A DNA stretch of 64,000 nt from Bacillota bacterium. Lineage in GTDB: Bacteria > Bacillota > Clostridia > Christensenellales > DTU072. Location of the stretch: NCBI GenBank assembly GCA_009781445.1, contig WQYD01000001.1:73126-137125 (forward strand). The letters are read 5' to 3'. The notes beneath the pieces were generated by a model. It had not been told where the DNA came from and did not search any database. It saw nothing but the letters and a program-made list of their open reading frames with translations. Shown here piece by piece: positions 509-63,073 of this stretch (positions are counted from its first letter, which is position 1; every line of letters begins with the position of its first letter). Both the position numbers and the translations under genes were made by a program.

Positions 509-1330
509 TTATCTTGTGGAAGTGCTTGTGGGTTTACCGCCCATTTTCGGCACGGGTTTTACCGCAGGCTTTTTGGTAGCACTTGAGGCGGAAGGTTTGG
601 CGCTTGAAGTTTTGGGGCTTGAGGGTTTTGCGGTTGTGCTTTTTGCGCTTGAAGCGGTGGTTTTCATGCCCCCACTCTTTCCTGCGCTAACCTTGCTTGC
701 AGTCGCATTTTGGCTTACTGCAAGAGAAGCGGAAGGTTTGCTTAAAGCGTCTATCTTGAGTAACACCGCACCTTGCTTTGCGTGGCAAAGAGGGCAACAC
801 TTAAATGCCTCCATGGCTTTTTGCGCGTAACCGCAATCCGAACATTTCCAAACCACAGGTGTGGGGCGTGAGTACATTGTGTTGTTTTTCATTTGGGTGT
901 AAAGTTCGCTTAGTATCGCAATGTGTTGCTTTTCCACCTCTATTACATTGCGGTAAAGCCCTGCAATATCCTTAAATCCTTCCTGTTCTGCAACTCTTGC
1001 AAATTCGGGGTAAATCTTTGTGGCTTCGTCTGTTTCGTCCTCAGAGGCAAGGCGCAAATTTTCCATTAAATCCCACTTTTCCTTAAAAGGATAGCCTGCG
1101 TCTATGTGGATATTGGTTATCGTTTGCTTATCCGCAGTTTGAATAAAGGAATAAAACATACGGGCATGGTTGAATTCGTTATAGGCAATATCGTCTATAA
1201 TGTCTGCAAGGGCTTTAAAGCCTTGGCTTCTTGCGCCGTATTCCATAAATTCATAACGGGTGCGCGCTTGGCATTCGCCTGCGTAAGTTCTTGCAAGGTT
1301 TTTAAAGGTTTGGCTGTTTTTTAAATTCAT
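509..1330 (-). CDS. rbr: Rubrerythrin (diiron ferritin-like domain plus C-terminal rubredoxin-like CxxC...CxxC) with a ~78-aa low-complexity tail
   Basis: NLARTYAGECQARTRYEF, NEFNHARMF and EVEKQH match rubrerythrin diiron helices. WKCSDCGY...CCPLCHAKQ is the rubredoxin-type site. The tail is rich in Ser/Ala/Lys/Pro/Thr. Confidence 0.85.
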   Translation of the reverse strand: MNLKNSQTFKNLARTYAGECQARTRYEFMEYGARSQGFKALADIIDDIAYNEFNHARMFYSFIQTADKQTITNIHIDAGYPFKEKWDLMENLRLASEDETDEATKIYPEFARVAEQEGFKDIAGLYRNVIEVEKQHIAILSELYTQMKNNTMYSRPTPVVWKCSDCGYAQKAMEAFKCCPLCHAKQGAVLLKIDALSKPSASLAVSQNATASKVSAGKSGGMKTTASSAKSTTAKPSSPKTSSAKPSASSATKKPAVKPVPKMGGKPTSTSTR

Positions 1331-2847: not shown

Positions 2848-5064
2848 GTGGATACATTCAAAAAGGGTAAGTGGAATAAAGCAATAGATGTGCGTGACTT
2901 TATCGCACTTAACTTCACGCCGTATGACGGCGATGAGGGCTTTTTATGTGAGGCAAGCGAAAGGACGAAAGCGGTTCTTGCAAAAGCTGAGGAAAGTTTT
3001 GAAGCCGAACGCATGGCAGGCGGGGTTTTGGATATTGAAACAAAAAAGATTTCTTCCATTTTAAGTTGGAAAGCAGGATATATATATAAGGAAAAGGAAC
3101 TTATTTTCGGGCTTCAAACGGATAAACCGCTTAAGCGCGCCGTTAACCCTTTTGGCGGAATAAGAATGAGTGAAACCGCCTGCAAAGAATACGGATATGA
3201 ACTTGATAAAAGCGTGGTGGAAGCGTTTAAATTCAGAACCACGCATAATGACGGTGTTTTTAGAGTTTACAGTGACGAAATGAAAGCCGTGAGAAGTTCG
3301 GGGCTGATTACGGGCTTGCCCGATGCGTACGGCAGGGGCAGGATTATCGGGGATTACCGCCGTGTTGCCCTGTACGGAATGGATTATTTAATTGAACAAA
3401 AGATTAAGGATAAGGCAAAACTTCAAGCGGGCGCAATGAGCGAAGAAAGCATTAGGCTTATAGAGGAAATTCATAAACAGCTTTCATTTATGCAGGAATT
3501 AAAGGCAATGGCACTCACCTACGGGGACGATATTTCCTTGCCCGCAAAAACTGCGCGCGAAGCGGTGCAATGGCTGTATTATGCCTATTTGGGTTCCATA
3601 AAAGAACAAAACGGGGCAGCAAACTCAATAGGGCGCATTTCTACATTTCTTGACATATATATTGAAAGAGATATTAAAAACGGCATTTTAACCGAATCTC
3701 AAGCGCAAGAAATCATTGACGATTTCGTGATAAAGCTAAGAATGGTTAGGCATTTGAGAACGCACGCATATAATGATCTTTTTGCAGGCGATCCTGTGTG
3801 GGTAACCATGGCAGAAGCAGGCATGACAACTGATAACCGCCATATGGTTACTAAAACTGCGTACCGCGTGCTGAACACGCTTTACAATTTAAAGCCCTCG
3901 GCAGAACCCAATATCACCATTCTTTGGGCTGAGGGGCTACCTGAAAATTATAAACGGTTCACCGCAAAAGTAAGCATAGATACGGATAGCTTGCAGTACG
4001 AAAATGACGATATAATGCGAAAGGATTTCGGCGATGATTATGCCATTGCTTGCTGTGTTTCCGCTATGAAAGTGGGCAAACAAATGCAGTATTTCGGCGC
4101 AAGGTGCAATCTTCCCAAGGTTTTATTAACCGCGCTTAACGGCGGACGGGACGAGGTTAGCGGAAAGGCAGTCGCACCCAAGGGCAAGGCGTTTGACGAG
4201 GGTGAACTTGATTATGAAAGCGTGCTTAAAGCATACCTTTCTTACGCGTCATGGACGGCGAACTTGTATGTAAACACAATGAATGTGATTCATTTCATGC
4301 ACGATAAATATGCTTACGAACGCCTTATGATGAGTTTGCACGATACCAAGGTTGAAAGGCTTATGGCTTTCGGCGTTTCGGGGCTTAGCGTGGTGGCGGA
4401 TTCACTTTCCGCAATAAAGTACGCAAAAGTTTATGCAGTTAAGAATGAAAAAGGGCTGATTTCTGATTTTAAAATTGTGGGCGATTTCCCGAAATTTGGC
4501 AACGATGACGAACGCGCAGACGAAATTGCGAAGTTTTTAGTGGAAGATTTTTATAGTAAAATCAAAAAGGTTAAGGCTTACCGCGGTGCAAAACACACGC
4601 TTTCGGTGCTAACCATAACTTCAAATGTGGTGTACGGCAAAATGACGGGCGCAACCCCTTGTGGCAGAAAAGCAGGCGAAGCGTTTGCCCCTGGGGCAAA
4701 CCCAATGCACGGCAGAGATAAATGCGGTGCGCTTGCAAGCCTTAATTCGGTGGCAAAATTGCCGTACAAATGCTGTAAAGACGGGATTTCTAATACCTTT
4801 TCCGTAACCCCCGATGCCCTCGGCAAAACCGAAAATGATAGGAAAGATACCCTTGTAACCCTTTTAAACGGATATTTTGAAAGCGGTGCGCACCATTTAA
4901 ATGTGAATGTGCTTAACCGCGAAACTCTAATTGACGCCATGGAAAACCCTAAGAAATATCCGGGGCTAACAATCCGCGTTTCGGGCTACGCGGTTAATTT
5001 TAACAAACTTACCAAAGAACAGCAAGCCGAGGTTATTGAAAGAACCTTCCATAAACGCTTCTAA
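2848..5064 (+). CDS. pflB: Pyruvate formate-lyase (formate C-acetyltransferase)
   Basis: Collinear with E. coli PflB as I recall it: [36 protein letters not shown], catalytic Cys pair [10 protein letters not shown], glycyl-radical motif [12 protein letters not shown] start. Confidence 0.95.
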
Positions 5065-5993
5065 TGATTGGATACATTCATTCGCTTGAAACCATGGGAA
5101 CAGATGACGGCGGTAAAATCCGCACCGTTGTTTTCATGCAAGGGTGCAATTTGAGGTGCGTTTATTGCCATAATCCTGATTCGTGGAATTCAGCGCACAG
5201 CGCAGAATTAATTCAGAATTCAGAATTCAGAATTCAGAATGAAGGAAAGGAATCAGCGCACAGCGCACAGCGCACAGCGCACAATGAAGGAAAGGAATCA
5301 GCGCACAGCGCACAGCGCACAGCGCACAATGAAGGAAATATTAATAATAATTCCGCCCCTGCAACCTGCAACCTGCAACCTGCAACCTCAAAAGATTCCA
5401 CCCCTATGCCCTATGCCCTATGCCCTATGCCCTCAACGGAACTTGCAAAAAAGCTAATCCGCTTTAAACCTTATTTCAAAAACGGCGGGGGGGTTACTTT
5501 TAGTGGCGGTGAACCGTTGCTTCAGGCAGACTTTGTAAGGGAAACGGTGAGAATTTTAAAAGAAAACGGCATTCATGTGGCTTTGGACACGGCTTGTTCC
5601 GTTTTAAACGAAAGCGTCAAAGCCCTTTACGGCGCAGTTGATTTGGTTATTGCGGATTTAAAGTTTTTTAGTAATGAGGATTATATTACGCACGCGCACG
5701 CGGATATTTTTAATACCGTGATAGACACGCTTAATTATCTTAATAAAATAGGCAAGCCTGTAATCCTGCGCACGGTAATCGTTCAGGGCATTAACGATAA
5801 TGAGGAAAGCATTTTAAAATATAAGGAAATAGGGGATCGTTTTAAAAATATTATCCGCCACGAATTTAAACCTTTTCACACAATGGGCTTTTCTAAATAT
5901 AAAGAATTCGGAATCACTAATCCGCTTGAAAATAAAAGCGCGCTAAGTAGCGAAGTTTTGGAAAGGCTTGTTTCCGCGCAAAAAAGCGAATAG
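5064..5993 (+). CDS. pflA: Pyruvate formate-lyase activating enzyme (radical SAM), interrupted in frame by ~82 aa of repeat-element sequence
   Basis: CNLRCVYCHNPDSW (CX3CX2C) and GGGVTFSGGEPLLQ motifs. TAATG stop/start overlap with pflB. About 309 aa versus about 245 aa typical, and the excess maps to 5187-5433. Confidence 0.85.
   Translation: MIGYIHSLETMGTDDGGKIRTVVFMQGCNLRCVYCHNPDSWNSAHSAELIQNSEFRIQNEGKESAHSAQRTAHNEGKESAHSAQRTAHNEGNINNNSAPATCNLQPATSKDSTPMPYALCPMPSTELAKKLIRFKPYFKNGGGVTFSGGEPLLQADFVRETVRILKENGIHVALDTACSVLNESVKALYGAVDLVIADLKFFSNEDYITHAHADIFNTVIDTLNYLNKIGKPVILRTVIVQGINDNEESILKYKEIGDRFKNIIRHEFKPFHTMGFSKYKEFGITNPLENKSALSSEVLERLVSAQKSE
5187..5433. repeat. Intragenic, core-less mosaic of heptamer arrays and junction modules from the dispersed element family
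   Basis: (CAGAATT)x4-5, two copies of (CAGCGCA)x4 each ending in CAATGAAGGAA, AATTCCGCCC-(CTGCAAC)x4, ATTCCACC-(CCTATGC)x4. The same units and junctions occur in the intergenic elements. Confidence 0.9.
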
Positions 5994-6036
5994 GGTTAAA
6001 GAAAAGCGGAAAGGGCGGAAAAAGCACGGATAGTAG

Positions 6037-8282: not shown

Positions 8283-8398
8283 CGCATAATGCGGGGCGCA
8301 TTATGCGCAATTAAGAATTCAGAATGTAGAATTCAGAATTATGGATTAATTAACTAATGAGATTTAGAATCCACCATGTTTCTCGTTTCTCGTTTCAC
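8283..8398 (-). repeat. Palindromic heptamer-array element, copy A (core in reverse orientation)
   Basis: A 10-bp hairpin (8283-8307), an AATTCTG-type array read as GAATTCAGAAT (8309-8340), the core reverse-complement AATTATGGATTAATTAACTAATGAGATTTAGAATCCACC (8337-8375), then (TTTCTCG)-type array (8379-8398). Confidence 0.85.
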
Positions 8399-9368: not shown

Positions 9369-9373
9369 CTTAA

Positions 9374-9554
9374 CAGCGCACAACGCACAGCGCACAGCGC
9401 ACAATGGTGGATTCTAAATCTCATTATTTAGTTAATTAAACCACAATTCGTACTTTGTACTTTGTACTTCGTACCTAAATAAATAATTCCTTCACTGTGC
9501 GCTGTGCGTTGTGCGCTGTGCGCTGATAAAATTCACAATTCGTACCTCGTACTT
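9374..9554 (+). repeat. Palindromic heptamer-array element, copy B
   Basis: Left arm (CAGCGCA)x4 at 9374-9403, core 9406-9448, (CGTACTT)-type array 9449-9475, junction AATAATTCCTTCA, inverted arm (TGTGCGC)x4 at 9495-9525. Near-identical to copy G. Confidence 0.9.
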
Positions 9555-18633: not shown

Positions 18634-18682
18634 TATATAGTCGCGCGTGTGCGGAAGTTAAAAACGCGCGTGCAAGGTGAGT

Positions 18683-21600
18683 ATGAGTTCAAGGTTCACA
18701 CCTAACAGTAAAAGATACATAGGCTTTTTGATAGTTCTTGCAGTGGCGGTAATTGCAATCGTTTCCGCGTTGCTTATCATGCCTGTGGTTTTGGATTATT
18801 ATAATCAGCAAATTCCCGGATATGACGCAAATGCCATTGATCCTAACCGCAAGGATATTGAAGCGATAGTTCTTTTAAATAACGGGCGCATAGGCGTTTT
18901 GGCGGATTTATCCCAAGTTAAAGTTGAAATTCATTATAGCAACGGCGAAGTTGAAACAAGAAGTTTAACCGATTTAACGGTTATGGGGCTAAACACAAGC
19001 AAGCCGGGGGAAATTGACAATGTGGTTCTTAGCTTCGGCGGATTCACGCAAACCGTCCCTGTGGTTATCACCCCTGTAACCCTAAGGTTAACTTATGTCC
19101 CCGCAGGCCCAGGGGGAAGGGTGGAAGGCCCTGCCGTGCAAGATGTGCAATCAGGCGAAAACGCGCTTACCGTGCGCGCCGTGCCAGACGAAGGATACGA
19201 ATTTTCCCACTGGTCAGACGGAAGAAGAACCGCCACAAGAACGGATTTCGGGGTTTCTAAATCCGAGGACTTTACGGCTACATTTGTTAAAAAACGCTAT
19301 CTTGTAATTTTTAGATACCCAGACGGCACAAGCCCGAGGGAACAATGGGTTTTCCACGGCGATCCTGCCACCATGATTCCCGATATCGGCAGGCGCGAAA
19401 TGCAACTTTACGGGCATAGGTTTACGCATTGGAATGTAAGCAATGAAGAAATCAATTCCGTTACGCGGGATTTAATTATTATCCCAAGCTATGAAAGATA
19501 CGCAACTAATGTAAGCCTTCAAATTACAGAAGGCATTGAGGGGCTTCCTCTTGCCACAGGCGAAATTATGCCGTTTTACCCAAAAGGGGTTGAGGCGGAT
19601 TTAAGGCTTTTGCCTAACCCTTACAGAACTTTTGCAGGGTGGGAAGTTAAGGACGCGAATAATGAATGGATTTCGTTACCCATGCAAACACAGAACTTCG
19701 GCGTTGTGGTTTCTTCGGTTACCGCAGGGGGCGAACATAGCAGGCTTGCGCTTTCATTCAGAACAATAATTCATTCTAACGGGCAGTATTCAGTGATGTT
19801 CACCACCCCTGGAAAGCAGTTCGGCAGTAGCGAACCCGAACCCGAAATGTACATTGAAAGCCTTGAACTTCGTGCAAATTTAATTTACGACACAAGCGAA
19901 CTTGTTTTCACAAGCAACAATTTACCTATCCACACAAACATAATTTCGGCAGGTGTTCCGCTTATCCGCCTCTTTAGCCAAACTATAGTGGCAGATCCTT
20001 TGGTTATTTTTGACGCAATTAAACCTAACCCCGTGGAAGGCTTTGAATTTAAAGGTTGGTTTATGGCAGGTTCGGAAGCGGACGCAAGCGGAAACCCAAG
20101 GCTTATCACAAATGCCACCACATTTATCCGCCCCACAGAACTTATTGCGCATTTTGAAAAATTAAGATACAATCTTACTTTCCTAAACGAAAACAGCGAA
20201 GTTATCCGCACCGTGGAATTTAGGTATGACGATGTTCTTTCCGCGGAAGGCACATTCCCCAATTTCACCCCCGCAAAGGAAAACCATGTGTTCATAGGTT
20301 GGTTCGTGGTAGGCACGAACATTGTGGTTAATAAGGAATATAGGATTCACAGCAATATCACGGCTTATCCGCGCTTTGTGGTGGATAGAAGAGATTTAAC
20401 GGTGCAGATTAACGGCAGGGGAACAGCTTCCTTAAGTGAGGACGGCGGTGCGTTTGCTTCCGTTATCGGAATCCGCGCGCTTGATGTTACCAAACCTTAT
20501 TTATTGAGGGCAACCGCAGACGGCGGATTTGTAATCGCTTATTACATTATTGAAAGTTCAGACGGCGTCCGCCGTGTTGATATAGGCGCAACACAGCATG
20601 AAATTGCTTTGCCCGAAACAGGCGAAATCATTCTTTCGGATTACAAAATTACGCTGTTCTTCCGTTCGGCAGAACACAAGCTAATTATCTTTAACGGTTC
20701 TACACCTGCCGATTCAGGGCTTATTGAATGGCAGATTTCCGAAAACAACACAGGGCATAGCGAAAATGTGAATGTGGAAATAACCGTGCAAGATTCCGCT
20801 TCACGAAACATTTGGATTTCCGCTAAAACAGGATATTTTATAAGAAGCATTACCGTGGGCGGTGTGCCTGTAAGCAACCTGCCCCAACGCGCACCGCGGT
20901 TTACCCTTGTAATGGAAATGATTACAGGCGAAGTGGTTATAAATGTTACTTACGAATTGATTGAATTCTTTTCCTTTATAGAACAGCCCGCAATGATAGG
21001 CGGTAGGCACGGCGGTACGATTACTGAGAACACCTTAAACCCCTATAATGTAAACAAAAACCCGATTTTCACAATTGTTGCAAACGAAGGCTTTTTCATT
21101 AAGCACATATTTATTAACGGCATAAATGTAAACTTGTTTTCACCTGCCTCTCAAACCAATCTTTCCAATATATTTATTAAGGGCGAACAAGTGGAACTTT
21201 CCACGCTGTTTGCAGGGGCAGACGAAAGGATAACAAGCCTGAGGCTTGAAGCACTTAATTTGGTGGCAAACTTTAGGATTACGGCGGAATTTGCCGAAAT
21301 TTACTATTTTGTTAATGTGGAAACAGTGGGCGTTGGTTCATTTTCACAAACAAGTGCGGTGGCAGGATTCGGGCAAAGCGTGTTTATCACCGCTTACACT
21401 ACAGACGATTTTTATGTGCATTCCTATAAAATCGCGGAAGAATTTGAGGTTGTGCTGGACTTCATGTCTGCAACCGAAACAATTTCTGTGAACGGAATCA
21501 CAAACGATATTACCGTTAGGGTTGAATTTAGATTGCGCCAATTTAGCGTAAATTTTGAAAGAGCGCCTAACTCATTTGTTTCGCACGGCGGTGGCGGACG

Positions 21601-24600
21601 CATTTCCTTGGGTTCAGACGGTATTTCTTACACATTTTCCCCCGGTCAAAATGTGCTTTTAACCGTGTACGCACTCACAGGCTTTTACATATCTTCAATA
21701 GAAATTGCAGAACTTGGCGCGCCAAGCGGAAGGCTTGAATTTGTGCTTCATAATTCCACAGAACACACGCTTACGATTAACAATCTAAGAAAAAGCTACA
21801 CCGTAAGGGTTACCGCTTCCCCTCTTAACTTTGAGGTTAAATTGGGCTTCTCAGGTTCAGTAAACGCAGTTTCGGGCGATATTCCCAAAACGGTGCTTTA
21901 CGGCACGGAATGGGAAGTGGTATTCTTGCTTGAAGCAAACAGGCGCATTCTTGCCGAAAGCGTGGAAGTGCGCAACTTTAACAATCAGCTATTACCCACA
22001 ACCACTATTCCCGAAATTTTGGGTAGCATTTTAACCACCGTGTCCATTACCCCTGCGGGTGGCGGTTTAAGGCAATTCAGGGTAACGGTGGATAGGATTA
22101 CCGAAGATGTGGAAATCTTTATACCTATAGGTTACGAAGAACCGATTGGGGACGATATGATTTTAACCATGGGCGCAAAGTTCGGCAGTATTAGAGTGGC
22201 GTACACAAATCCAGACGGTTCAATCCTAAACTATTTCGGTTCAACTTCGCCCTCAAGCGGTAACGAAGAAACAGGTAGCGGAACGGTTACCATGGGTAGC
22301 AGAATCACATTTTACTTTTCGCCCCAAGATATTAACCTTTTTTCGCTTAAATATTTCACCGTAAACGGTGTGCGCGTTCAGCCCGATCACCACACTTACA
22401 CCATTGAAAATGTGAGATCGTCAATCCATGTTTATGTCGTGTTTGAACAGGATTTATTCATTATAGGAATAACCTCTTTAGGCAGAGGGGTGGTAAGCGC
22501 GAATAAGGACGCATTTGAACAGAACGATGCGAATCTTGAATTAAGAATCGCCCCCGGGGCAGGGCAAAGGCTTGTTTCCCTTTTTATTAACGATATCAAT
22601 TATGATTCCATTGTGGAAAGCACCAACCAAGGCGTTATCACTCACAGGTTGCCTTCGGTGATTCTTGTGGCAAACATTTCCGTGCATGCAGTGTTTGAAC
22701 CTATCACCTTGAGTTTCCTAATTACTCTTGTTCACCCTCAGGATATTATTGCAGGGGGAATCCCCCACCCTGATTATACTTCGGGGGTGCTGTCCCAAAG
22801 GGCGTACGGGGACGGCTACCGCATTCCGCTTGAAGCTATAGACGGCTACCACATTGAAAGCATAATTGTGGACGGAAGAAGCGTTGATTCAAGGATGCTG
22901 GATCAGTTCGTAATGGACGGAAGAACTTATAGAATCACTTACGGCATACTTTCGGGCATTGTGTACGAAAACACAAATATCGTGGTAACATTTGCGCCCA
23001 ACAGATATTCCGTTAGCCTTATTCAAACGCAGGGCGGAAGAACGCAAGTTGCCTTAGAGGACGGCGCGCCCACAAGCAATTCAGATTTGCAGGTTCTTGC
23101 AAACGGCAGGTTGCTTTTAATGATGCAAGCAAATTTAGGGTGGCACATAAGCAAGGTGTTTATCAATTACGGTGCGGGCGAAGTTGAACTGCCCGATTCC
23201 GAATGGAAGGCAGACGATGTTAACCCGAATAATAACGCGCTTGTAAACCGTTGGTTAAGCGGTATAGATGCAAGGATTGTTATCCGCGTGGTTTATGCCA
23301 TAAATGTGTATTCGGTATCCTATACTATCAGCAACAGTAGCCCTAACTTTAGAAACATTGATACTAACGCTTCCGATTTCGGGCTTTTTGAGATATTCGG
23401 CTTGCCAAGGTTTAGCGAAAGCAGTGATAGGCTCACAGGGGTTTATAGAAATATTAGCTACGGGCAAAATCTTCGCTTCGTGGCACGCCCAGTTATTCTA
23501 AGGGGTTACCATGTAAGCCTATTTAGAATAAACTGGATTGATCCCGAACTTGGGCATCAATCCGAAACAAGAACATTCTCTGCCACAAACCAAATGATTT
23601 ATAACGGCGTTAGGGCAGATTTAGTTATTGAAATTGAATTCACAAGAGATTTATTTGAGTTTAGCGCAGGCGCGATTCCGCAAGCGTTCGGTTCACCCTT
23701 TGCATTCAACGGTTCGGTTAGCATAGCTTTAACTAACCCTATGAACGGCGCACCTGCCGAAGCCGTGGGCGGAAAGCAAGAATTCGGCATTGCGTACAAT
23801 GTGGTGCTTAACGCAGGCACAGGCTATACTCTTAGCGCATTGTTTGTGAACGGCGCAGACAGGACTTCCACCGTAAGGCAGAACAGAGTTAGCGCGGAAA
23901 TCCGTTCTGATTTAAATTTAGAGGCGTTTTTCAGAATATCAACCTATACAATAACGCTTAACGCTAATCAGGGTGAGGACGGCGAAACAACCCTTTACTT
24001 AGATAGCACCAAAGTTCTTGAACGCGTTTACGAAAACGGCGAATGGATTATGAAGTGGGCAGGTGGCGATGCCGATCGCATTGTTACCGCTTCGGGCTTT
24101 GTGGAAAGAATAGGCAATTCCGCCACGCAGGTGCGCGCTTCGCACAATGCAAATTTAAGGTTGCAAGCAGATCCCGATTCCGCTAACGGCTACAGAACGG
24201 AAAACTTTAGCATAAACGGAATTGGCTTACAGCTAACAGATTCCCAAAGAAACCAGCGGTATCAGCATAATTTTATTGCTACTTCGGCAGTGCCGTTTAG
24301 CATTACTTACCGTATGCGCACATTTGAAGTTACCCTTGTGTACAGCCAGCAAGCACTTTCTGCGGGCATTCAAGGTGGCAGTTATTCAGTGGATTTCGGC
24401 GGTACAGTGGTAATTGAAAATGTAATAACGGAATATGGATATTACCTTTCCCCTGGGGATATAAGGGTTTCGGTTAATAACGGAATTATACTTCCAAACC
24501 TTGAATTTTTTGGCGCGTGGGCAGGGCTTGGCTTTGATATCAGGAATGTGGAAAGCGCAGTGCGCATTGAGTTTTTACACAGGCGCACGGCTTATAACAT

Positions 24601-27600
24601 TTCATTTGACGGTGATTATAAATCCGAACACTCAGTGCAGGCAGGGGCTAAAGCAAATGCAATTTCAGGCGCGGTGTTAACCTCAAGCGGTAGTACGACA
24701 GGCAGGTGGTTTACCGAAGTTTCGGCTTCACACCCGATAACTCAAAATTCCGTGTCATGGAACGGTTCGGTAATTTACGGCTCAGATATTAGCGGTTCGC
24801 ACCGCGGTGCTTGGTTCGGCGATTCGCTTAATATTTACTTAATTCCCGTAACAGGTTATGAAATTTCCTCTGTAAGCGTAATTATTAGAAACGCTTTCGG
24901 GCAGGGTGATTCGGTGGTGGTTAGTGCCACTTACGCCACAATCGGGGGCGATCAGCGCATATCTTATGACACGGCAAACCGCTACTATGTTATTCCTGTA
25001 ATCGGCGGTGTTTCGGGCAATATTGAGGTAGCAGTAACTTACCGTGTTAAAACTTACGATGTTACGGTGCTACCTATAAGCGGTGGCGAAATATCGTTCT
25101 TCGGTGATATTCAAACCAGTGATTCGGGGCAGTTGTTCATTCAGCACCACGCAAGGTTTAACATTGTGGTGCGTGCGCAGTACGGCAGGCACTTAAGTTT
25201 GCTAACCGTGAACGGTGCGCGCGTGGCAAGCGTTTATTCTATTATTGATCCAAGTTTCGTGTACGAATACCACACATTTGATTTGGCAGGATTGCTTGAA
25301 CCTTATATATCCGAAGCGTTTTTGCATGAATTATCCACGCTTACAATCCAAGCGCAATTTGGCTTTAATTCCTTTGATGTGGAATTCAGCGTGAACGGAA
25401 ACAGGGGCGGTGATTCCACATTGCAACCCTTTGTTCCCAATAGCACAATTGCGTTTAATGTGAACGGCACGCCGAACCGCGTAACGCAAACCCCGTCTGA
25501 AGGGTATAGGATTACCGCTATTTCAATCACAAACGCGCTTGGCGATATCCTTTACACCCCCTCTGCGGACGAAATTAGCGCAACCTTTATAAATCTTTTT
25601 GCCTCTGGCAAGCTGATTGATCTTTTGGATTTCCATTCGCAAACTAACAGAACGGTGTTTATAAGTTACACCACTCAAATAATCAGCTACACAAGCCACT
25701 TTGAAACATGGCTTTATAGGGAAGGCTTAGCCCCTGTTAGCACGCCTTTTGCCGATATTTTCACCCTAACGGCGGAATTTGGCGGTAATCAATCCGCTTC
25801 GGGGCTTTCTCACAATTATTTTACCCCTGTAACTTTAACTTTTGCGTTCACCAACCAAGAAGCTTACGATAATTATTATTTCGCAGGTTTCATGGAAGAA
25901 ATTGAGGGCGTTTGGGTTTATGTGAGAGGCGGACTTAACGGCATTAACTTGCCTATGGCAGACGGCACTATGCTAACTTACACGGTATCCCGCCAATTTG
26001 TGGCAAATTCTCAAAGCGGTGTGCTAACTAACAGAAAATTCCGTGCAGTTGTATTCCAAGTTTACAATGTGGATATTGAAGTTCACCCGGAATACAAGTT
26101 TGCAATGGGTAGCTTTGCTAACAATACTATAAGGTATACCCAATATTCAAATGTGGCGGTAAGGGCATCGTACAATGCGGGTTCTGCGCCAGATATAACA
26201 GACGGCTTGAACAGCGAACTCATTAACCTCATAAACAGCGATATTAACATTAACGGAAGATATTCGTACAGGGTTTTAAGCGGTGCAAGGCTTAACATTT
26301 CCGCACAAGATTCGTACACAGGTTCAAACCGAAGCGATGCCAACCCCTCACTTTATTTCGTTGAATATAAAAACGATTTAATCAGCAATTCGCAAACCCT
26401 CATTCCCAATAGGTTAGACGCAGGCACAATAGTGGGCGGTGTTAACAGGGGAATCACAGGGGATTCACTTATCCATGTGTACTTTGCTAACACAATGAAC
26501 TTTAGCTTCCGCTTGGAAAGCGTGGGCGCGGTTGCCAACCCCGGTGAGGGCGGTACGGTTAGCGTGAACGGTTCGTCTGTTTCGGCAAGCCAAAGGGTTA
26601 TGGTTAACACTGTTGCCACCATAACCGTGCAAGCAAGAGATAATTATAGGTTTGACGATATTTTATTCCACGAATTCCTGCCTAACGCAGGGGCAGACGG
26701 GTTCAGACGCCCCACAAATAACTGGATAAGCCTATCCCAAATGCCCAATTGGGAAAGATATGTGCGCTTTGAATACCATTATGAGGACGGCACTTCTTCA
26801 AGCGGGGATAAAGATCCGATTGCGAATAAGATTGTAAACAGGGTTGTAATCACCGTGTTTGCGTCTGAAAATATGGAATTCACCGTGCGTTTTTGGAAGC
26901 GCATAAGCGTTCAAAGCAGTGTCGTGCTGTTCTCAGATAATGAAGGCAACCTGCCGTGGGAAGGGAACAAGCCTCACTTTACTGAGTCCCCTGCAAACGG
27001 AAACTACGATTTTGACAGTGAAATAGCGTTCAGGCTTCCTTATTTGGAATTGGTGCAAACAAGCACATGGGATGTAAGATACCAATTTGTGGGCTACACC
27101 GTGAACGGAATTAACACATTCCGCCACCTTGGCGGTGGTTTCCCCCAACCGCAAGAGTACACGGCTTTGTTAAGGCTTACGGATCAAGGTGCGTTTGCAA
27201 TACCTATTGCCAGCTTGGACGGCAAATTTGTGGTTGATGTTAAAGCGGTTTTCGTACCTATTTTAAATATAACGCTTGAAAACAGCTATCCCAATCCTCA
27301 TTATGATTCAAATCCCCAATTTGACGCTTACTTTAACCCCGGCATGATTCAGCTTGCCGTGCCTAATTACACCATGAGTTGGCTTGGCTACCTGCCGTTA
27401 AGAAGATCGGTTTCAGCCCAAACCCAACCAGTTACCAACCTGCTTGATCGCCACAACAACACCGCGTTTAGCTTCCAAGTTCCCTCACGGATTAACAGGC
27501 TTGATCCCAATGTAACCTCTTCACTAAGCCCTTATAATATTTGGAACGATAATGTGCTAACCCTTTCATGGCTTGATGTAAACGGGCCTGAGGCAGGAAA

Positions 27601-30600
27601 GTACAGCACAATATTCTGGGAATATTATGAACCTAATCAGGACGGCACAGGCGGTGAATGGAAGCGGTTACCGGGGCTTTCCACCCGTCCGTCTTACACA
27701 ATCACCGTTTCGGAACTTCTAAAACTTTCGTACTTTAACCGTGCAAACGAAAGCGCGTTTTACGAAGAAGATTTGCCTATGTGGAATTCCGCCAATAGCT
27801 ATATCGGTGCCGGATCTTTCGCAACGCTTAGGCTTCGCGCAAGGTTTAACCGCGTGGAAAGAATAGATGTTGTGCCGTGGTCTGCTTTATCCCAATCAGG
27901 CGTATATATTGAGGGGGCAGACGGGCCTACACCTCAAATAACCGAAAACGGAAGATCGTGGGGCAATTTTGATTTCAATTCCACAATAACCGTGCGCCCT
28001 GTGCCTAACGGATTGAGATTTGACTATTGGACGGTGTTTAACCCAAGCACGCAAACCTATGAAGAAGTTACTTATGACGGGGCTATCACAGGTTCACACT
28101 TTTACCGAATTGATAGGGTAAGCAATGTGCTTACCGTGCGAATGGCGGAATCTTATCTATTTGCCCCGCGCTACACAAGGATTTATAATGCCACAATCAC
28201 GGCGCAAAACCTATCGGCAAACAGCGATAGCATCTTCCACAGAAACTATACCCCCGGAATTCTATTCTTCGGCTTTGGCAAAACAATGGAATTAAGCAAC
28301 TGGAATTTGAATGCGCCCCCTCAGCCCCAAGCGTCTGTTTCGCGCCAAATTGAGGTGGGTGATTGGGTTTGCTTTAAGCTTGATAACCCCCATTCGGAAA
28401 GCACATTCGGTTCAAAGGTTCACGGCACAATCGCAGGCACATACACAAGATTTTTAAGCGTTTACTATCTTAACGAAGCAAACCAAAGGGTAACAATTAA
28501 CCCTCATCCAAGTTATAACCACTCAGATATTTATCAACAAGTTTTTGTGGTGCAGGTTACTCAAAGAATGACTGTGTACTTTGAATTTAAATCGTTCACC
28601 TCTATTGAAATCACAAACCTATATCACGGAGACGGTTCTAACCAAAAATCCGTGCTTTTCTTGCCCGAAAGGTTGCGCACGGCAACGGGGCTTTCGGAAC
28701 AAATAAATGTGAGTGGCACATCTGTCCTTATAGAAAATGTACCTATTGAAAGGGATTCCGCGCCTTCTAACTATTCGGGAACTTTCATAAATAAGCTTAA
28801 CGGAATGTTTACCGGCTTCTCAGGATCTCAAACCATTGAATTCCGCGGAGGTTACGGATTGTTCCTTTCAGAAGTTCCTGCTTTAAGCGCAAGAACTTAC
28901 GGATTCTTTGCTTTCGGCAGTGTGTCGGAAGCAAGCGCAATTTCAAGGCGCGCCTATCCTTTCCAAGATTCACACCTTACTCAAGCAGGTATGGGAACGC
29001 CTCAAAGCCCTTTCAGAATAAGTTCCGTTAGCCATTTAGACAGCATGGAATTTATTTACACAATTAACAACCGCACCTTTTCCACCACGGGCGGTGCAAG
29101 CGGAAGAATGCACTTTATTCTAACGGCAAGCTTTACCTTAAGCCCCAGCGGAGCGTTGTTTCAATCAAGGGGCTTGTTCTGCGATTCTGTGGAGGCAGGG
29201 GGAGATGGGTTTAACGGAGTTTTCATGGGAAATAACCAAACCCTCACTTTGGGCGCAATGAGTGCTAACGCGCTAACTAACGATCGCGGGGTGGGCATAT
29301 TCGCGCGCCTTGGTGCTAACGGGCAAATAAGAGATTTGGTTATTCAGCGTTCGGCAACTAACATTTCGCTTGGCGGGAATAACAATGTGGGGCTACTTGT
29401 GGCAAGAGCGGTCGGCACAAGCGGAAATATCGCTTCAATCAGCAATATCCGCATAGGCGATACCGTGGGTATCATTCAAGGAAACGGTTCAAATGTGGGC
29501 GGGCTTGTGGGCTTCGCTGAGCATTGTACGATTACAGGTGTTCAAGTAACGAATGTAACGGTTAGAAACAGCAGTACCGCAGGCTTTGGAACAGGCGGTA
29601 TCGTAGGCACGCTTTCCACAGGCGCGAGATTGGTAGATTCATTTAAAACTATCTTAAGCACCGCACAAAATGTGGAATCGCAAGGTAGCCATGTGGGTGG
29701 CGCAGTGGGCAGAACAACGGGTACAGCGGGCGAAGCAATGCTAAGAGTTACCGTTAACTATTTCACAAGCAATAACTCAACAGGCGCAAGCATAGGCACT
29801 TTAAGTTCAAGCGTGGTGGGCGGTGTTATTGGGCTTAACGGTGTGGGCAGAACCATATCTCAAGTTTATGCCACAGGTTCGTTCACAATAAATTCACGCG
29901 CAAGCACAGGCATAACAGGTAATAGCGCACCCACTATGACACAAAATGCAGAAGGAAACCTAACTACCGTGTTCGGCGCAGGAGGCATTGCGGGCGAAAA
30001 CAGGGGAACAATAACCTATGCAGGGCTTGGCATAAGCCTTGGCTTCGGACAAACATGGAATACCTCAAACGAAGGCACAAACGGGCTTCACACCGTGAGA
30101 ATCAATTCAAATTATGCAGGCGGTATAGTGGGGGTTAACAGGGCTAACGCAAGGTTGGAATATTCTAACACAGGTAACCACCGCTTCTTCACTAACTTTG
30201 GCGGGCTAACAAGCGTAGGCGGGGCTTACGGCGCGCATGTGGCTATAAACCAAGGCACAGTTATCTACGCGCACACGGTTTCTGCTTATAATAACCAAAT
30301 AATTGAAACCACCGCGGATTCGGGTGCTTATACCACAGGCGCATTGCCGAATGACTATCTTTTCACTTTAGTAAGATCGCTTCCTATGGGCGGAAATAAC
30401 GGCACTTGGTATCCTTTCTATAATGTCGTTCCCAATAGTTCAAACAGAGGAACGCATGTGGCACACACGCAGGAAACAGGCGCAATTTACTTCGGCGGTG
30501 TGGCAGGCTTTAACTCAGGCGGGTTAGTTTCAAACAGTTCAATTAGGGGTAAGCTTCAAATCTCACGCACATCGGGTAGCAACGGCACTAATTACACATT

Positions 30601-35386: not shown

Positions 35387-35533
35387 GGGAAACGAGAAAC
35401 GAGAAACGAGAAACGAGAAACACGGCGGAATCTAAATCTCATTATGAAACGAGAAACGAGAAACGAGAAACATGGTGGAATCTAAATCTCATTGTATATT
35501 AAATCCATAATTCTGAATTCTTAATTCTAAATT
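35387..35533 (+). repeat. Palindromic heptamer-array element, copy D (duplicated left half)
   Basis: (GAAACGA)x5 plus truncated core GGCGGAATCTAAATCTCATTAT (35424-35445), then (GAAACGA)x3-4 plus core 35474-35512 and an AATTCTG-type array. Starts 1 nt after the potC stop. Confidence 0.9.
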
Positions 35534-41178: not shown

Positions 41179-41670
41179 ATGATATTAAAAATTAAAAGAG
41201 ATTTACACAGTTTAAAAGAAGAGGCTTTTCCTGTGCAGAATGCAGAGGGGGATATTGTTGCCGTTCTTGTGCCTGTTACGCAAGGGTATTATATAACCAA
41301 CCGCGTGGGGGAACAAATAGCGCAAATAACCTTTTACGATAAAAACGCAAAACTTTGCATAGCTAACACCACAGGGAAGGACATAACTACCACAAGCATT
41401 GCAAGCCTTGGAAATAATAGATTCGGATTTAAGGATTCAGTTTCCGAACAGGATAAATCCTTTGCCTTAGATATCCCCAAAAGGTTTTTAGACGAACTTT
41501 CTTTTTGGGGTGATCCCTTAGTACCGTCTTATGACATTTATTCGGATAAAACCGTTTCCGCTTCCGTAACGGCAAGCGAAGGCGACACAATATCAATAAA
41601 AATCGCCCGCGATGCTAACTTTTTAAGAATGTTAATGATTGTGTTGGCAGTTGATTATTTTAGGGCATAG
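41179..41670 (+). CDS. Small protein, possibly tubby C-terminal-like (LURP-one/YxjI-type)
   Basis: 163 aa with an alternating beta-strand pattern and a hydrophobic C-terminal helix (FLRMLMIVLAVDYF). The assignment is weak. The stop codon TAG lies inside a GGGCATA array. Confidence 0.35.
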   Translation: MILKIKRDLHSLKEEAFPVQNAEGDIVAVLVPVTQGYYITNRVGEQIAQITFYDKNAKLCIANTTGKDITTTSIASLGNNRFGFKDSVSEQDKSFALDIPKRFLDELSFWGDPLVPSYDIYSDKTVSASVTASEGDTISIKIARDANFLRMLMIVLAVDYFRA

Positions 41671-41862
41671 GGCATAGGCCATAGGGCATAGGTAAAAATA
41701 AAAACACCTCTCTGTGTCTGAGGGGTGTTTTTGTTAGAAGAGAGTTAAAAATTAAGAATAAAAGGTGAAAAGTTATGGAATCTAAAATCTTACTCAAGAA
41801 AAATGCATAACAAAATAATTCCACCCCTATGCCCTATGCCCTATGCCCTATGCCCTATGGCC
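41662..41862 (+). repeat. Palindromic heptamer-array element, copy E (degenerate core, embedded terminator-like hairpin)
   Basis: Left arm (GGGCATA)x4 at 41662-41692, hairpin at about 41704-41729 plus T-run, degenerate core TATGGAATCTAAAATCT (41774-41790), AATTCCACCC plus (CTATGCC)x5 to 41862. Confidence 0.85.
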
Positions 41863-42417
41863 TCAATTAAGCGTGCGCATAAGCAAATCAATATCTTTAT
41901 TCGCAATATAATCAATCAGCGCGTCCGCAAGTTTTGTTAGCACGGGCGCGTAGTTTTCCATGTCGTCTTTTGGTATCGGGCTTAGCACGAAATCTTTTTT
42001 GGGTGAGGCGGAATCGCCCATTCCTATGCGTATTCGTTTAATACTTTCCGTGCCAAGGACGGAAACCACGCTTTTCATGCCGTTGTGCGTGCCACCGCTT
42101 CCAAATGCCCTTGCACGCAGTGTAAAGCGGGGAATCTCAAAATCGTCATAAAGTACGAAAATATCGTCTGGGGTTGCGCCGTACTTGGCGCATAGGCTTT
42201 TAACCGCATTTCCCGATAAATTCATAAAGGTTGTGGGCTTTGCAATCACAATTTTTTCACCGTTTCGCTGAAGCACAGTAACAAGTGATTGGCAATCGTA
42301 CTTCTTAATCTCTTTATTTAGCTTTTTTGCAAGCAAATCCACGGCAAGAAAGCCAAGGTTATGAAAGGTGTTTTCGTATAATTTTCCGGGGTTACCAAGC
42401 CCCACTATTAGTACCAT
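41863..42417 (-). CDS. pth: Peptidyl-tRNA hydrolase
   Basis: LIVGLGNPG..Y..T.HN.GF and GTHNGMKS motifs. Confidence 0.95.
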   Translation of the reverse strand: MVLIVGLGNPGKLYENTFHNLGFLAVDLLAKKLNKEIKKYDCQSLVTVLQRNGEKIVIAKPTTFMNLSGNAVKSLCAKYGATPDDIFVLYDDFEIPRFTLRARAFGSGGTHNGMKSVVSVLGTESIKRIRIGMGDSASPKKDFVLSPIPKDDMENYAPVLTKLADALIDYIANKDIDLLMRTLN

Positions 42418-42425: not shown

Positions 42426-42911
42426 TTATTTGGTAGCTATAGCTACCGATTTAGTGCTTTTTCGTTTCGCTTTAAAGAAATCGGAAAGCACTAAAGCACA
42501 CTCATTTTCTAAAATTCCGCCCGTAGCCTCAACCTTGTGGTTAAATTTAAATTCGCCTTCGTTAAAAAGGTTTAGCACCGAACCGCACGCGCCTGATTTA
42601 GGTTCATACGCACCAAAAAACACACGGCTTACCCTTGCGTTTATCATTGCGCCCGCGCACATTGGGCAGGGTTCTAAAGTAACATATAAATCGCAATCTT
42701 CCAACCACCAATTTTTAAGTTTTTTGCTTGCTTTTGATATTGCTTCAATCTCTGCATGGCGCGTGGCATTGTTTGTTTTTTCCTTGCGGTTATGGGCTTT
42801 TGCAATTATTTTATCACCTTTTACCACTACACAACCCACGGGAACTTCGCCCTTTTTAGAGGCTTTTTTGGCAAGTTTTAGCGCAATTTGCATATAATCT
42901 TCAGGTTTCAT
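42426..42911 (-). CDS. tadA: tRNA-specific adenosine deaminase
   Basis: HAEIEAI and PCPMCAGA zinc motifs. About 160 aa. Confidence 0.9.
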   Translation of the reverse strand: MKPEDYMQIALKLAKKASKKGEVPVGCVVVKGDKIIAKAHNRKEKTNNATRHAEIEAISKASKKLKNWWLEDCDLYVTLEPCPMCAGAMINARVSRVFFGAYEPKSGACGSVLNLFNEGEFKFNHKVEATGGILENECALVLSDFFKAKRKSTKSVAIATK

Positions 42912-43825: not shown

Positions 43826-43968
43826 CAGCGCACAGCGCACAGCGCACAATGGTGGATTCTAAATATCATTATTAGTTATTTAATCCATAATTCGTACTTT
43901 GTACTTTGTACTTCGTACTTAATAAATAATTCCTTCATTGTGCGCTGTGCGTTGTGCGCTGTGCGCTG
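43826..43968 (+). repeat. Palindromic heptamer-array element, copy G
   Basis: (CAGCGCA)x3 at 43826-43848, core 43851-43892, (CGTACTT)-type array, AATAATTCCTTCAT, then (TGTGCGC)x4 to 43968. Near-identical to copy B. Confidence 0.9.
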
Positions 43969-43972: not shown

Positions 43973-45046
<1,074 letters not shown>

Positions 45047-45251: not shown

Positions 45252-45382
45252 TTATAGTATCTTTACTAATACATATTGGCGCGATATCATTTAGCCTCAC
45301 ATATGCGCGCGTCATTATGTTTTTGGGCGGGATACCACATAAGTTCGCAGTGCGCCATGCACGGCGGGGGGAGATTTATATT

Positions 45383-55233: not shown

Positions 55234-55408
55234 CACTAACACGGTAATACTGCTTGCGCTTGGTGCGTTTCTGCTTGGATTTATAATCAGAGTTATGATT
55301 CCAAAGCGAAAGAAGCAAGCCAAGGCAACCCTCAGCACAAACACAAACACAAAATCACTTAACGAACAAAATAAAAATATAAGCGAAAACGGAGGTTCCG
55401 CATTATGA
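55226..55408 (+). CDS. Small single-pass membrane protein (60 aa)
   Basis: ATG 55226 follows GAGGGA and overlaps the end of the upstream gene. TM VILLALGAFLLGFIIRVMI plus KRKKQAK. Its stop overlaps the next start (ATGA at 55405-55408). Confidence 0.45.
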   Translation: MIDTNTVILLALGAFLLGFIIRVMIPKRKKQAKATLSTNTNTKSLNEQNKNISENGGSAL

Positions 55409-59238: not shown

Positions 59239-59239
59239 A

Positions 59240-63065: not shown

Positions 63066-63073
63066 ATTGATTA

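Follow-up and report, generated by a model that had tools for sequence, protein, structure and literature searches.

Why should the gene for a pyruvate formate-lyase (PFL) activating enzyme contain some 80 extra codons written in tandem heptamers, and what is this DNA doing there? The gene, pflA, lies within a 64,000 nt stretch of DNA from an uncultured member of the Clostridia, which was analysed as a whole and is referred to here as the window. The substrate of PflA is encoded directly upstream by pflB, which is intact and retains both the RVSGY and ACCVS motifs. The ATG of pflA overlaps the TAA of pflB by 1 nt, and the two genes are probably translationally coupled.

The predicted protein has the features of a PFL-AE-type radical-SAM activase of glycyl radical enzymes (GREs), as judged from its motifs, its modelled fold and its pflB neighbour. 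The three cysteines of the CX3CX2C cluster motif (C28, C32 and C35) are invariant across the PflA alignment, residues 141-151 form the GGE-type SAM-binding motif GGGVTFSGGEP, and none of the 24 columns that are invariant in the family alignment has changed. The nearest sequences are 55-57% identical, and no relative above 57% identity was found among 5.8 billion clustered proteins or in a scan of GTDB genomes, a collection from which the source genome is absent. The ~6,000 homologues of PflA span 218-252 aa, compared with 309 aa here, giving a net gain of ~75 residues. An alignment with orthologues, as proposed in the earlier note on this DNA, was carried out with 35 sequences and confirmed an insertion of that net size: W41 and R133 are separated by 91 residues, against ~16 in homologues, and the long loop is found in this PflA alone. 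Residues 3-47 and 54-232 of Escherichia coli PflA align with residues 2-46 and 126-302 of the query, placing the insert between CX3CX2C/CHNPDSW and RFKPYF..GGGVTFSGGEP. The proposal that pflA carries additional in-frame codons after the cluster motif was therefore correct, the ORF being intact, and the figure of ~20 residues given for the E. coli protein was close enough to the homologues.

To define the insert, we compared it with the rest of the window by BLAST and resolved its arrays with Tandem Repeats Finder (Table 1). Matches of 93-100% identity covered positions 5189-5435 almost completely and corresponded to arrays and junctions at 8309, 9373, 35387, 41661, 43826, 59238, 62044 and 63073. 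The suggestion that the insert is built from a dispersed family of heptamer arrays was thus upheld for nearly every base. Its start had been placed at 5187, which stands; its end, given as 5433 (~247 bp, ~82 codons), lies 2 nt further downstream because the conserved outer end of the element, CCTCA, reaches 5435. The AATTCAG array (5210-5240, 4.4 units), the CAGCGCA arrays (5254-5283 and 5299-5328), the CCTGCAA and CCCTATG arrays (5358-5388 and 5402-5433) and the 45-nt tandem duplication (5238-5338) are all perfect. The stretch containing the AATTCAG array matches 62088-62051 with 38/38 identity, and the CCCTATG array with its right end matches 41818-41856 with 39/39 identity. A search for the AT-rich core of the family in the insert found none, as had been noted, and no inverted repeats were detected; the insert folds weakly (z = -3.5).

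Table 1. Coordinates in the window of pflB, pflA, the modules of the pflA insert and other copies of the repeat family
Feature	Position	Strand	Basis or remark
pflB, pyruvate formate-lyase, 738 aa	2848..5064	+	Pfam PF02901 (PFL-like), PF01228 (Gly_radical)
pflA, putative PFL-activating radical-SAM enzyme, 309 aa	5064..5993	+	Open ORF, alignment, model
Element-derived stretch N42..S124, 249 nt, 83 codons	5187..5435	+	BLAST, Tandem Repeats Finder
Left terminal module TTCAGCGCACAGCGCA, 2-unit CAGCGCA array	5189..5204	+	Conserved left end of the sub-family found within genes
GAATT, AATTCAG array, junction AATGAAGGAA	5205..5247	+	Encodes LIQNSEFRIQNEG
Two tandem 45-nt units: AGGAAT, CAGCGCA x4.3 (30 nt), CAATGAAGGAA	5248..5337	+	Each encodes KESAHSAQRTAHNEG
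AT-rich linker ATATTAATAATAATTCCGCC	5338..5357	+	Truncated stop-free remnant of element tail or core
CCTGCAA array (5358-5388, 4.4 units), junction CAAAAGATTCCAC	5358..5401	+	Perfect array, Tandem Repeats Finder
CCCTATG array (5402-5433, 4.6 units), right end CCTCA	5402..5435	+	Encodes PMPYALCPMPS
AATTCAG array and AATGAAGGAA, second in-frame copy in the window	62046..62090	-	Inside Orn/Lys/Arg decarboxylase ORF 61797..63122
Full element: CAGCGCA array, core hairpin, GTACTTT array, inverted CAGCGCA array	9373..9525	+	Intergenic representative
Full intergenic element	43826..43968	+	Architecture as in 9373-9525
AATTCAG-type array, core, AAACGAG array	8309..8398	-	Intergenic
Two array-plus-tail units (GAAACGA), AATTCTG-type array	35387..35533	+	Intergenic
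Inverted AGGGCAT/CCCTATG arrays	41661..41863	+	Intergenic
Composite with two cores	59238..59423	+	Intergenic
Copy between decarboxylase and class II aminoacyl-tRNA synthetase genes	63073..63201	+	Intergenic

Between genes, the same family takes a different form. Its heptamers include AATTCAG, CAGCGCA, AACCTGC, AGGGCAT, AAACGAG and AAAGTAC, amongst others, and its basic unit is an array of ~4.4 heptamers to which a conserved tail is attached. Copies between genes have the complete AT-rich tail or core together with inverted terminal arrays, which the intragenic copies lack, and they fold as hairpins; the representative at 9373 forms a long hairpin with z = -11.3. The core occurs eight times in the 64 kb window, where 0.01 occurrences would be expected by chance, and stop codons interrupt 76 of the 78 frames of 13 intergenic copies. 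Two of these copies touch neighbouring genes: the right end CCTCA of the copy at 41661 provides the stop codon of the minus-strand pth gene, and the synthetase ORF takes its final residues and its stop codon from the TCCCTTG array of the copy at 63073.

No Rfam family matched anywhere in the window at gathering thresholds, and viral contigs scanned with the core and with the array-junction pattern gave no matches. A scan of JGI metagenomes with the core returned one 4.2 kb contig (Ga0123356_10043608) bearing a single copy and no genes in common with the window. Our literature search retrieved no description of this heptamer-array family. Pfam showed no transposase among ~26 of the larger, though not the giant, ORFs of the window.

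The pflA insert is not the only copy to lie in frame within a gene. Eight further in-frame copies were identified in the same genome, in AddA (four copies), AddB, NFACT/RqcH (two copies) and the decarboxylase, bringing the total to at least nine in six genes within ~96 kb. It should be noted that the ~96 kb comprise four stretches from one MAG, two of which were fetched because they hold in-frame copies. Those in AddA, AddB and NFACT were recovered by exhaustive HMMER search with the insert peptide. The peptide encoded by the copy within the decarboxylase, IQNSEFRIQNEG, also occurs unchanged within the pflA insert, and all eight copies share the module order, orientation and reading frame of that insert, without a single stop codon. 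The intragenic order runs from a short CAGCGCA array through an AATTCAG array, a junction, a CAGCGCA array, a second junction and one or more CCTnnGC arrays to the CCTCA end. AddA insert 1 is 80% identical to the pflA insert at the protein level, shares its 45-nt duplication, and is a net insertion relative to Bacillus subtilis AddA (3U44; residues 4-75 correspond to 10-85, and 144-733 to 93-681). Since both the order of its modules and the duplication match those in pflA, stepwise local build-up within pflA was rejected. The term 'mosaic', used in the earlier note, calls for amendment, as the insert is one member of a recurring element whose modules keep a fixed order. The sequences flanking seven intragenic copies, whose element boundaries are not sharply defined, showed no consistent target-site duplication. 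A set of SAQRTAH-repeat proteins (P0245 and P0247-P0249), consisting of long pure CAGCGCA-type arrays without junctions, was not counted as part of the family.

The arrays carried by genes are nearly perfect and their junctions have diverged. The CAGCGCA arrays within genes are exactly 30 nt long in nine of ten cases, including all eight full-length arrays, compared with 23-58 nt for those between genes. This constancy is a signature of selection against changes in unit number.

Repeats of this kind can mislead assemblers, and we asked whether a mis-join or collapse had created the insert. The modules recur across the genome, the assembly could have miscounted the 45-nt unit, and two Logan contigs from run SRR10512954, built at k=31, break within the arrays. 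These contigs correspond to window positions 399-5236 and 5408-8357 with no mismatches, each was recorded in two samples, and because they end inside the first and last arrays they reproduce both junctions between gene and element. An ENA MEGAHIT contig is identical to the window over 6,930 nt, so that the source and ENA assemblies agree across 6.9 kb, although the three assemblies may draw on identical or partly shared reads. No module exceeds 46 nt and the 45-nt tandem tract spans 101 nt, both below the k=141 implied by the ENA contig name. Moreover, the insert joins two halves of one gene in frame, and AddA insert 1 provides independent evidence of the same order and duplication. An assembly artefact, which the earlier note had named as grounds for refutation, is consequently very improbable, the junctions agreeing in all three assemblies.

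The site of insertion has a precedent in related enzymes. In other GRE activases, a Cys-rich, ferredoxin-like insert of ~60-85 aa occupies the same alignment columns, and a ferredoxin-like auxiliary domain at this position has been described, in general terms, for most GRE activases (PMC13450708). The resemblance lies in the point of insertion, between CX3CX2C and the GGE strand, and in the similar length; that domain is conserved, rich in cysteine and cluster-binding, whereas the pflA insert is repeat-derived, of low complexity and predicted to be disordered. An AlphaFold 2 model, the structural check put forward in the earlier note, gave pLDDT values >90 for the core and <50 for residues 44-99. 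It aligned to 3cb8/3c8f with a target-normalized TM-score of 0.87-0.88 (0.88 to 3CB8; E=4e-21), which suggests that the core keeps the partial TIM-barrel of E. coli PFL-AE. The insert falls in a loop predicted to be disordered, a reading with which low pLDDT is compatible and of which it is not proof.

Given this location, the insert might have been exapted for docking or regulation, or as a flexible spacer, in some sense standing in for the ferredoxin-like domain. The near-perfection of the gene-borne arrays, despite diverged junctions, fits such a role. The insert contains two cysteines only, with no CX2CX2CX3C motif, the model predicts no structure for it, the same peptide occurs in unrelated enzymes, and no conservation extends beyond this one genome. 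We therefore regard exaptation as improbable.

The open reading frame itself requires explanation. The frame in use contains no stops across the insert and the third frame contains six; in shuffles that kept the base composition of the insert, a given frame was open in 2.7% of trials. A second open frame (ORF 5239-5457) had also been reported across the insert; it is open from 5239 only, and one TAA precedes that position. In the orientation found in pflA the heptamer arrays are stop-free in all three frames, and the insert, as had been noted of its arrays, sits in the only orientation that is free of stops. An intein, an intron and translational bypass were ruled out: the frame is open, there are no splicing motifs and there is no significant structure.

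Because the arrays are stop-free in every frame, openness comes more cheaply to this element than to random DNA, and the insertion might have inactivated pflA, with the frame surviving only as a by-product of the modules. The insertion is large, lies next to the Fe-S site and starts six residues after the last cluster cysteine; it brings in two cysteines and could disturb cluster, SAM or PFL binding. The absence of any PflA relative closer than those noted above also limits how well constraint can be gauged. Nevertheless, the 185 residues downstream hold every invariant position at 50-57% identity to homologues, the insert is 3n in length, and its junctions avoid the TGA and TAA found in the other frames. 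pflB is intact and apparently coupled, other members of the wider enzyme family naturally accommodate insertions at this site, and eight more open copies in conserved genes would be improbable without selection. Loss of function is thus unlikely, though it is the least improbable of the alternatives for pflA alone.

We also considered whether pflA is a slipped-strand contingency locus, as the earlier note proposed, in which gain or loss of heptamers would toggle PFL activation within the population. The unit of 7 nt is not a multiple of three, and in simulation a change of one unit in any of the six arrays shifted the frame as anticipated, truncating PflA at 46-136 aa, without its SAM-binding half, whilst a change of three units kept the frame. 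Many paired changes, with the loss upstream of the gain, restored it, because most of the insert is open in the second frame too. The differing lengths of intergenic arrays of the same heptamers indicate that slippage occurs over evolutionary time. However, the full arrays of the insert contain 4.3-4.6 units (the left end has two) and reach at most 32 nt, short of hypermutable length. As far as is known, switches based on simple sequence repeats (SSRs) use much longer tracts, the 7-bp repeats of Haemophilus influenzae hmw1A numbering well over ten copies. No unit-number variant was seen among the three identical assemblies, and ~15 billion proteins yielded no alternative PflA allele and no C-terminal PflA fragment.

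The wider distribution of the element also speaks against a switch. Arrays of near-invariant length, including the constant 30 nt, occur in AddA, AddB, NFACT and the decarboxylase, pointing to selection against change, and the presence of the element in frame in these genes makes it a property of the family and not a PFL-specific device. The host genes are housekeeping genes and do not encode surface or restriction-modification functions. The insert resembles SSR contingency loci (hmw1A, the LOS tetranucleotides) in that a repeat of non-3n unit lies in or near a gene and a change in unit number would alter expression; those loci are long, demonstrably polymorphic and associated with surface or modification genes, in contrast to ~4 units, invariant in the available data, in genes of metabolism and repair. 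A contingency role is formally possible, since one unit more or less truncates the protein, but it is unsupported, and we consider it slightly less credible even than exaptation.

The explanation that we favour, and hold to be probable, is that the insert is one copy of a coding-compatible dispersed repeat, similar to the Rickettsia palindromic elements (RPEs), which is tolerated by the enzyme and kept open by purifying selection. At least five further housekeeping genes carry the same element in frame, which gives it the appearance of tolerated selfish DNA. The intragenic sub-family would have lost the stop-bearing part of the tail, leaving a non-palindromic element of fixed module order that is read in one stop-free frame. 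A copy would have landed in the surface loop after CX3CX2C/CHNPDSW, apparently replacing ~6-8 native residues, and pflA would be transcribed and translated through it. Model and conservation suggest that the product would still activate PFL while bearing a hydrophilic, disordered loop of ~80 residues. Purifying selection on PflA would then keep the element stop-free, 3n in length and constant in its arrays. Copying between genes may have involved transposition in trans, recombination or gene conversion, and frameshifting by unit slippage would be a latent liability of the element and not its function.

A bolder proposal, which we advance tentatively and think somewhat doubtful, is that the copies read in frame constitute a separate, gene-specialized 'protein-invading' sub-family that is still spreading actively, is RPE-like and evolved independently. 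Because the element is built from 7-nt arrays, every colonized gene would on this proposal be a latent frameshift switch. If true, the colonized genes (PflA, AddAB, RqcH and others) would represent a dispersed source of reversible loss-of-function variants.

How does the element compare with known systems? RPEs (Ogata et al. 2000, 2002) number 728 in Rickettsia felis, where 85 lie inside ORFs (PMC1166351), and according to reviews they fuse in frame with genes unusually often (PMC10969869). Invoking them as a precedent, as the earlier note did, was apt given in-frame copies in unrelated genes. Both are small non-autonomous repeats that occur between genes and, in one fixed frame, within unrelated housekeeping genes, whose proteins acquire an extra peptide segment and are spared. 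RPEs are palindromic, ~100-150 bp long and found in the Alphaproteobacteria, whereas the present element consists of 7-nt arrays and junctions; the pflA insert lacks an inverted repeat, and only its intergenic relatives form hairpins. The element thus works like an RPE and is not classed as one, a comparison made by description, Rfam having returned no match.

Small mobile repeats such as ERIC, BOX, the Coxiella QMITE and cyanobacterial MITEs occasionally fuse in frame with host ORFs, and BOX elements share a modular architecture (boxA-boxB(n)-boxC). The intergenic copies described here have inverted ends and fold as hairpins. The terminal 'inverted repeats' are heptamer arrays that differ in sequence between copies, and in-frame copies are frequent, albeit in partly preselected stretches. 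The BIMEs and REP mosaics of enterobacteria likewise combine a few short module types and conserved linkers in variable number and orientation, but they lie outside genes and are built of REP palindromes instead of tandem heptamers. The STRR heptamers of heterocystous cyanobacteria are specific sequences such as CCCCAGT; the heptamers found here are different, and the host is Bacillota/Clostridia-like. Short arrays of 7-nt units are also found in Beggiatoaceae, in the form of TAACTGA repeats (PMC4679880). Both groups form arrays of 2-6 copies, mainly intergenic, in which orientation-dependent stops limit overlap with coding sequence; they use one or a few heptamers, have no grammar of tails and junctions, and belong to other phyla. 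Systematic in-frame copies of these heptamers in housekeeping genes were not described in the literature searched.

These results carry a warning for annotation, as such inserts split Pfam domains, break short-k assemblies and generate spurious overlapping ORFs, here 5239..5457 (+) and 5234..5401 (-). If unit slippage were frequent, the family would constitute a new kind of genome-wide mutational switch. Rickettsia provides the best-known case of small selfish repeats colonizing housekeeping genes in frame, which has been regarded as somewhat peculiar. Here, a structurally different, heptamer-based element does likewise in a free-living or gut-type lineage of Clostridia. It would offer a second natural system in which to study how proteins tolerate disordered insertions of 15-80 residues and how new protein segments may be seeded, with pflA as a well-defined natural test case for the permissive loop of the glycyl-radical activases.

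The pflA ORF comprises 309 codons, and its ATG overlaps the TAA of pflB, an intact 738-aa pyruvate formate-lyase gene. Two segments of PflA aligned with the E. coli PFL-activating enzyme, residues 2–46 with 3–47 and residues 126–302 with 54–232. Its homologues (~6,000) are 218–252 aa in length, the nearest only 55–57% identical. The alignment with orthologues proposed in the earlier note, here of 35 sequences, showed ~16 residues from the W of CHNPD(S/T)W to the R of R(F/Y)KPYF in every homologue, versus 91 in PflA. All 24 invariant family positions were kept in PflA, including C28/C32/C35 and GGGVTFSGGEP.

The insert (N42 to S124) consists of perfect 7-nt arrays, CAGCGCA x2, AATTCAG x4.4, CAGCGCA x4.3 (twice), CCTGCAA x4.4 and CCCTATG x4.6, with short junctions between them and a perfect 45-nt tandem duplication. 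When the insert was compared by BLAST with the remainder of the window, elements at eight further sites matched 5189–5435 almost base for base through their arrays and junctions. The AT-rich core of the family, present in eight copies in the window versus 0.01 expected by chance, is absent from the pflA insert. The anatomy described in the earlier note was therefore correct, and the right edge alone was shifted, to 5435, where the conserved element end CCTCA finishes. The stop-free arrays of the element are a trap for gene callers, and here they alone give rise to two spurious overlapping ORFs.

Around pflA, an ENA MEGAHIT contig (77 kb) and the window share 6,930 identical nt. Two Logan contigs of run SRR10512954, each found in the records of two samples, match 399–5236 and 5408–8357 with 0 mismatches, and end within the first AATTCAG array and the last CCCTATG array. 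This third assembler reproduces both gene/element junctions, and breaks exactly where 31-mers cease being unique. The earlier note had considered that the insert might be an assembly chimera; with the junctions the same in three assemblies, which may share reads, a chimera rejoining both halves of pflA in frame is very unlikely. The pflA insert is real and beyond chance.

Seven intergenic composite elements lie in the window, and further copies are present on flanking DNA. They are built as a heptamer array of 3–8 units with a conserved tail behind it, (C)AATGGTGGA(A/T)TCTAAAT(C/A)TCATTATT, and the array-plus-tail unit is often repeated with differing heptamers. At least 10 heptamers are used, including AATTCAG, CAGCGCA, AACCTGC, AGGGCAT, AAACGAG, AAAGTAC, AAGGGAC, ACGACTT and AGGCAAC. 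In many intergenic copies the first array recurs, inverted, as the closing module, and long hairpins are predicted for these (9368–9530, z = -11.3). Stops occur in 76 of the 78 reading frames of intergenic copies. Some copies have an array-like layout, in which a ~25-nt conserved tail (GGTGGAATCTAAATCTCATTATT) alternates with ~25–35-nt stretches, each another tandem heptamer. Elements also touch gene ends: the TGA stop of pth, a minus-strand gene, lies in a CCTCA element end (41861–41865), ORF 41179..41670 terminates within the TAGGGCA array of an element (41661–41670), and a class II aminoacyl-tRNA synthetase ORF takes its final residues (..KGQGTRD*) from a TCCCTTG array (63178–63201).

When 1.84 billion representative proteins were searched exhaustively by HMMER for the insert peptide of 83 residues, it was found in three other proteins, all of the source metagenome-assembled genome (MAG). 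A helicase-nuclease of the AddA/UvrD type (1,314 aa) carries four separate inserts, a partial AddB-type PD-(D/E)XK nuclease carries one, and an NFACT/RqcH protein carries two. The AddA and AddB genes are located beyond the window but on its 137-kb contig. Compared with B. subtilis AddA (3U44), insert 1 of AddA is a net gain of sequence. The window has a second, fragmentary in-frame copy in an Orn/Lys/Arg decarboxylase ORF, between the major and C-terminal domains, which comprises an AATTCAG array plus AATGAAGGAA; its peptide, IQNSEFRIQNEG, recurs unchanged in the pflA insert, and 38 nt of it match pflA 5210–5247 exactly. The mechanical start of this ORF, at 63122, falls within an upstream element, and the true start is probably the methionine of MLSKSIKK.

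Element copies, associated genes and other features (window positions unless a locus is named)
Feature	Position	Strand	Remark
Rubrerythrin gene	509..1330	-	
Fic/DOC-domain gene	1588-2718		adjoining, upstream of pflB
Small ORF	2729-2845		38 aa; adjoining, upstream of pflB
pflB	2848..5064		
pflA	5064..5993	+	
pflA insert	5187..5435		
Spurious ORF	5239-5457	+	72 aa
Spurious ORF	5234-5401	-	55 aa
Decarboxylase ORF	61797..63122		
Decarboxylase copy	62046..62090	-	
AddB (1 copy) and AddA (4 copies) inserts	L087 998-1215, 2383-2574, 4330-4503, 5161-5319, 5641-5796		L087, source MAG (ENA ERZ27264051 k141_2440476)
NFACT/RqcH inserts (2 copies)	L088 4594-4745, 5216-5335		L088, source MAG
Intergenic composite elements	8309, 9373, 35387, 41661, 43826, 59238, 63073		
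Tail/variable-spacer layouts	35387-35496; L083 reverse complement local 5000-5170; L087 8085-8350		L083 site 9.5 kb upstream of window start
Giant ORF	45317..51694		2,125 aa
162/324-nt tandem repeat	49820-50491		in 2,125-aa ORF; 4 and 2 copies, 82-84% matches
Other giant ORFs	18677..31078; 51751..55233; 55405..59199		first, 4,133 aa
ORF with serine run	43973..45046	-	357 aa
(TAC)11 microsatellite	44164-44197		perfect
14-nt tandem repeat (TTATCGTTTCATGT)	42924-42975		3.6 copies; between deaminase-like ORF 42426..42911 (-) and M14 peptidase gene

DNA alignment of the intragenic copies revealed a fixed module order, TCAGCGCACAGCGCA - GnATTAATTCAG(AATTCAG)3AATGAAGGAAAGGAn - TCAGCGCA(CAGCGCA)3CAATGAAGGAnATATTAATAAAnATTCCGCC - (CCTnnGC)4 - CCTCA. 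The canonical intragenic element is ~155 nt and encodes roughly (D/N)SAHSAExIQNSEFRIQNEGK(E/D)SAHSAQRTAHNEG..K(D/E)S(T/A)PMPYALCPMPS. The pflA copy is this element with one extra CAGCGCA-array unit, a 45-nt duplication also found in AddA insert 1, and a second terminal array. All nine intragenic copies, from a single MAG, share one orientation and one frame, the sole frame without stops. The start of the intergenic tail, CAATGGTGGAA, recurs in variant form as the intragenic junction CAATGAAGGAA, and the full intergenic tail, in the frame used, would bring in a TAA (...GGA ATC TAA); the intragenic sub-family is thus a derived form in which the stop-bearing part of the tail is lost. The earlier note had regarded the insert as a mosaic. 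Its modules are indeed those of the dispersed family, but assembly within pflA is rejected since the same fixed order recurs in the other copies, and the insert belongs to a recurrent, coding-compatible element.

It had also been proposed that pflA is a slipped-strand contingency locus, in which heptamer gain or loss switches PFL activation. The frameshift logic is formally right: in simulation, a change of ±1 unit in any of the six arrays truncated PflA at 46–136 aa, ±3 units kept the frame, and many -1/+1 pairs restored it, owing to a second open frame that spans 5239–5457. However, the tracts are short (≤4.6 units), three assemblies show no variant, a truncated or alternative PflA was not found among ~15 billion proteins, and the same arrays are also found in recombination-repair, ribosome-rescue and amino-acid-metabolism genes. 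Furthermore, 9 of 10 intragenic CAGCGCA arrays, all eight full-length ones among them, have a length of exactly 30 nt; their intergenic counterparts span 23–58 nt. Slippage evidently occurs over evolutionary time and is evidently selected against within genes, and a contingency role for pflA is unsupported and highly improbable.

An AlphaFold2 model of PflA, built with the family alignment, has a confident radical-SAM core (204 residues with pLDDT ≥90) that superposes on E. coli PFL-AE (3CB8/3C8F) with a TM of 0.88. Confidence was low in the insert (residues 44–99, pLDDT <50; residues 100–120, ~60). The modelling suggested in the earlier note thus predicts an intact core from which the insert looks like a disordered excursion. 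Three other glycyl-radical activases from the genome scan (loci L017, L018 and L069) carry a Cys-rich ferredoxin-like domain in exactly the alignment columns of the insert. Such a domain is present in most GRE activases, and absent from PFL-AE and the class III RNR activase (PMC13450708, review). Because other GRE activases carry their domain there, this position of the fold is known to accommodate 60–85 extra residues, and the insertion point in PflA is not arbitrary. Given this permissive position and the intact, translationally coupled pflB, we infer that a functional, loop-bearing activase is the most likely state of PflA.

The host is an uncultured Bacillota/Clostridia lineage whose L13 is at most 74% identical to anything known, the best named matches being Christensenellales-like. 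The 162/324-nt tandem repeat of the window translates into a Cys-rich repeat within a giant protein, and the (TAC)11 microsatellite accounts for 11 consecutive serines in a product without a Pfam match.

The Rickettsia palindromic element is a repeat whose dispersed copies lie, in a single frame, in many unrelated genes (PMC10969869, PMC1166351). The element described here shares these properties, and the analogy drawn in the earlier note is apt, and stronger than was then apparent. This is functionally the closest precedent, but identity with that element is rejected: the intragenic form is non-palindromic and made of tandem heptamers, and the host is Clostridia-like. Like BOX and BIME elements the family is modular, and like MITEs it has intergenic copies that form hairpins; neither a target-site duplication nor a transposase was seen in the ~96 kb of genome examined. 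Cyanobacteria and Beggiatoaceae are known to contain heptamer arrays too (PMC4679880), but in the descriptions consulted these lack this junction grammar, and gene colonization is not reported for them. The family was not found in Rfam or viral contigs, and no description was found in the literature. Outside the source MAG, the element core was found on one public metagenome contig alone, from JGI (L082, Ga0123356_10043608). The single copy there (3851–3933) is 93% identical to window 8309–8388 and adjoins a (GA)16 tract; the contig has no genes in common with the window. In-frame selfish repeats are a known kind of phenomenon, of which this element is a newly found variant, notable for its unusual heptamer-array construction and the density of colonized housekeeping genes.
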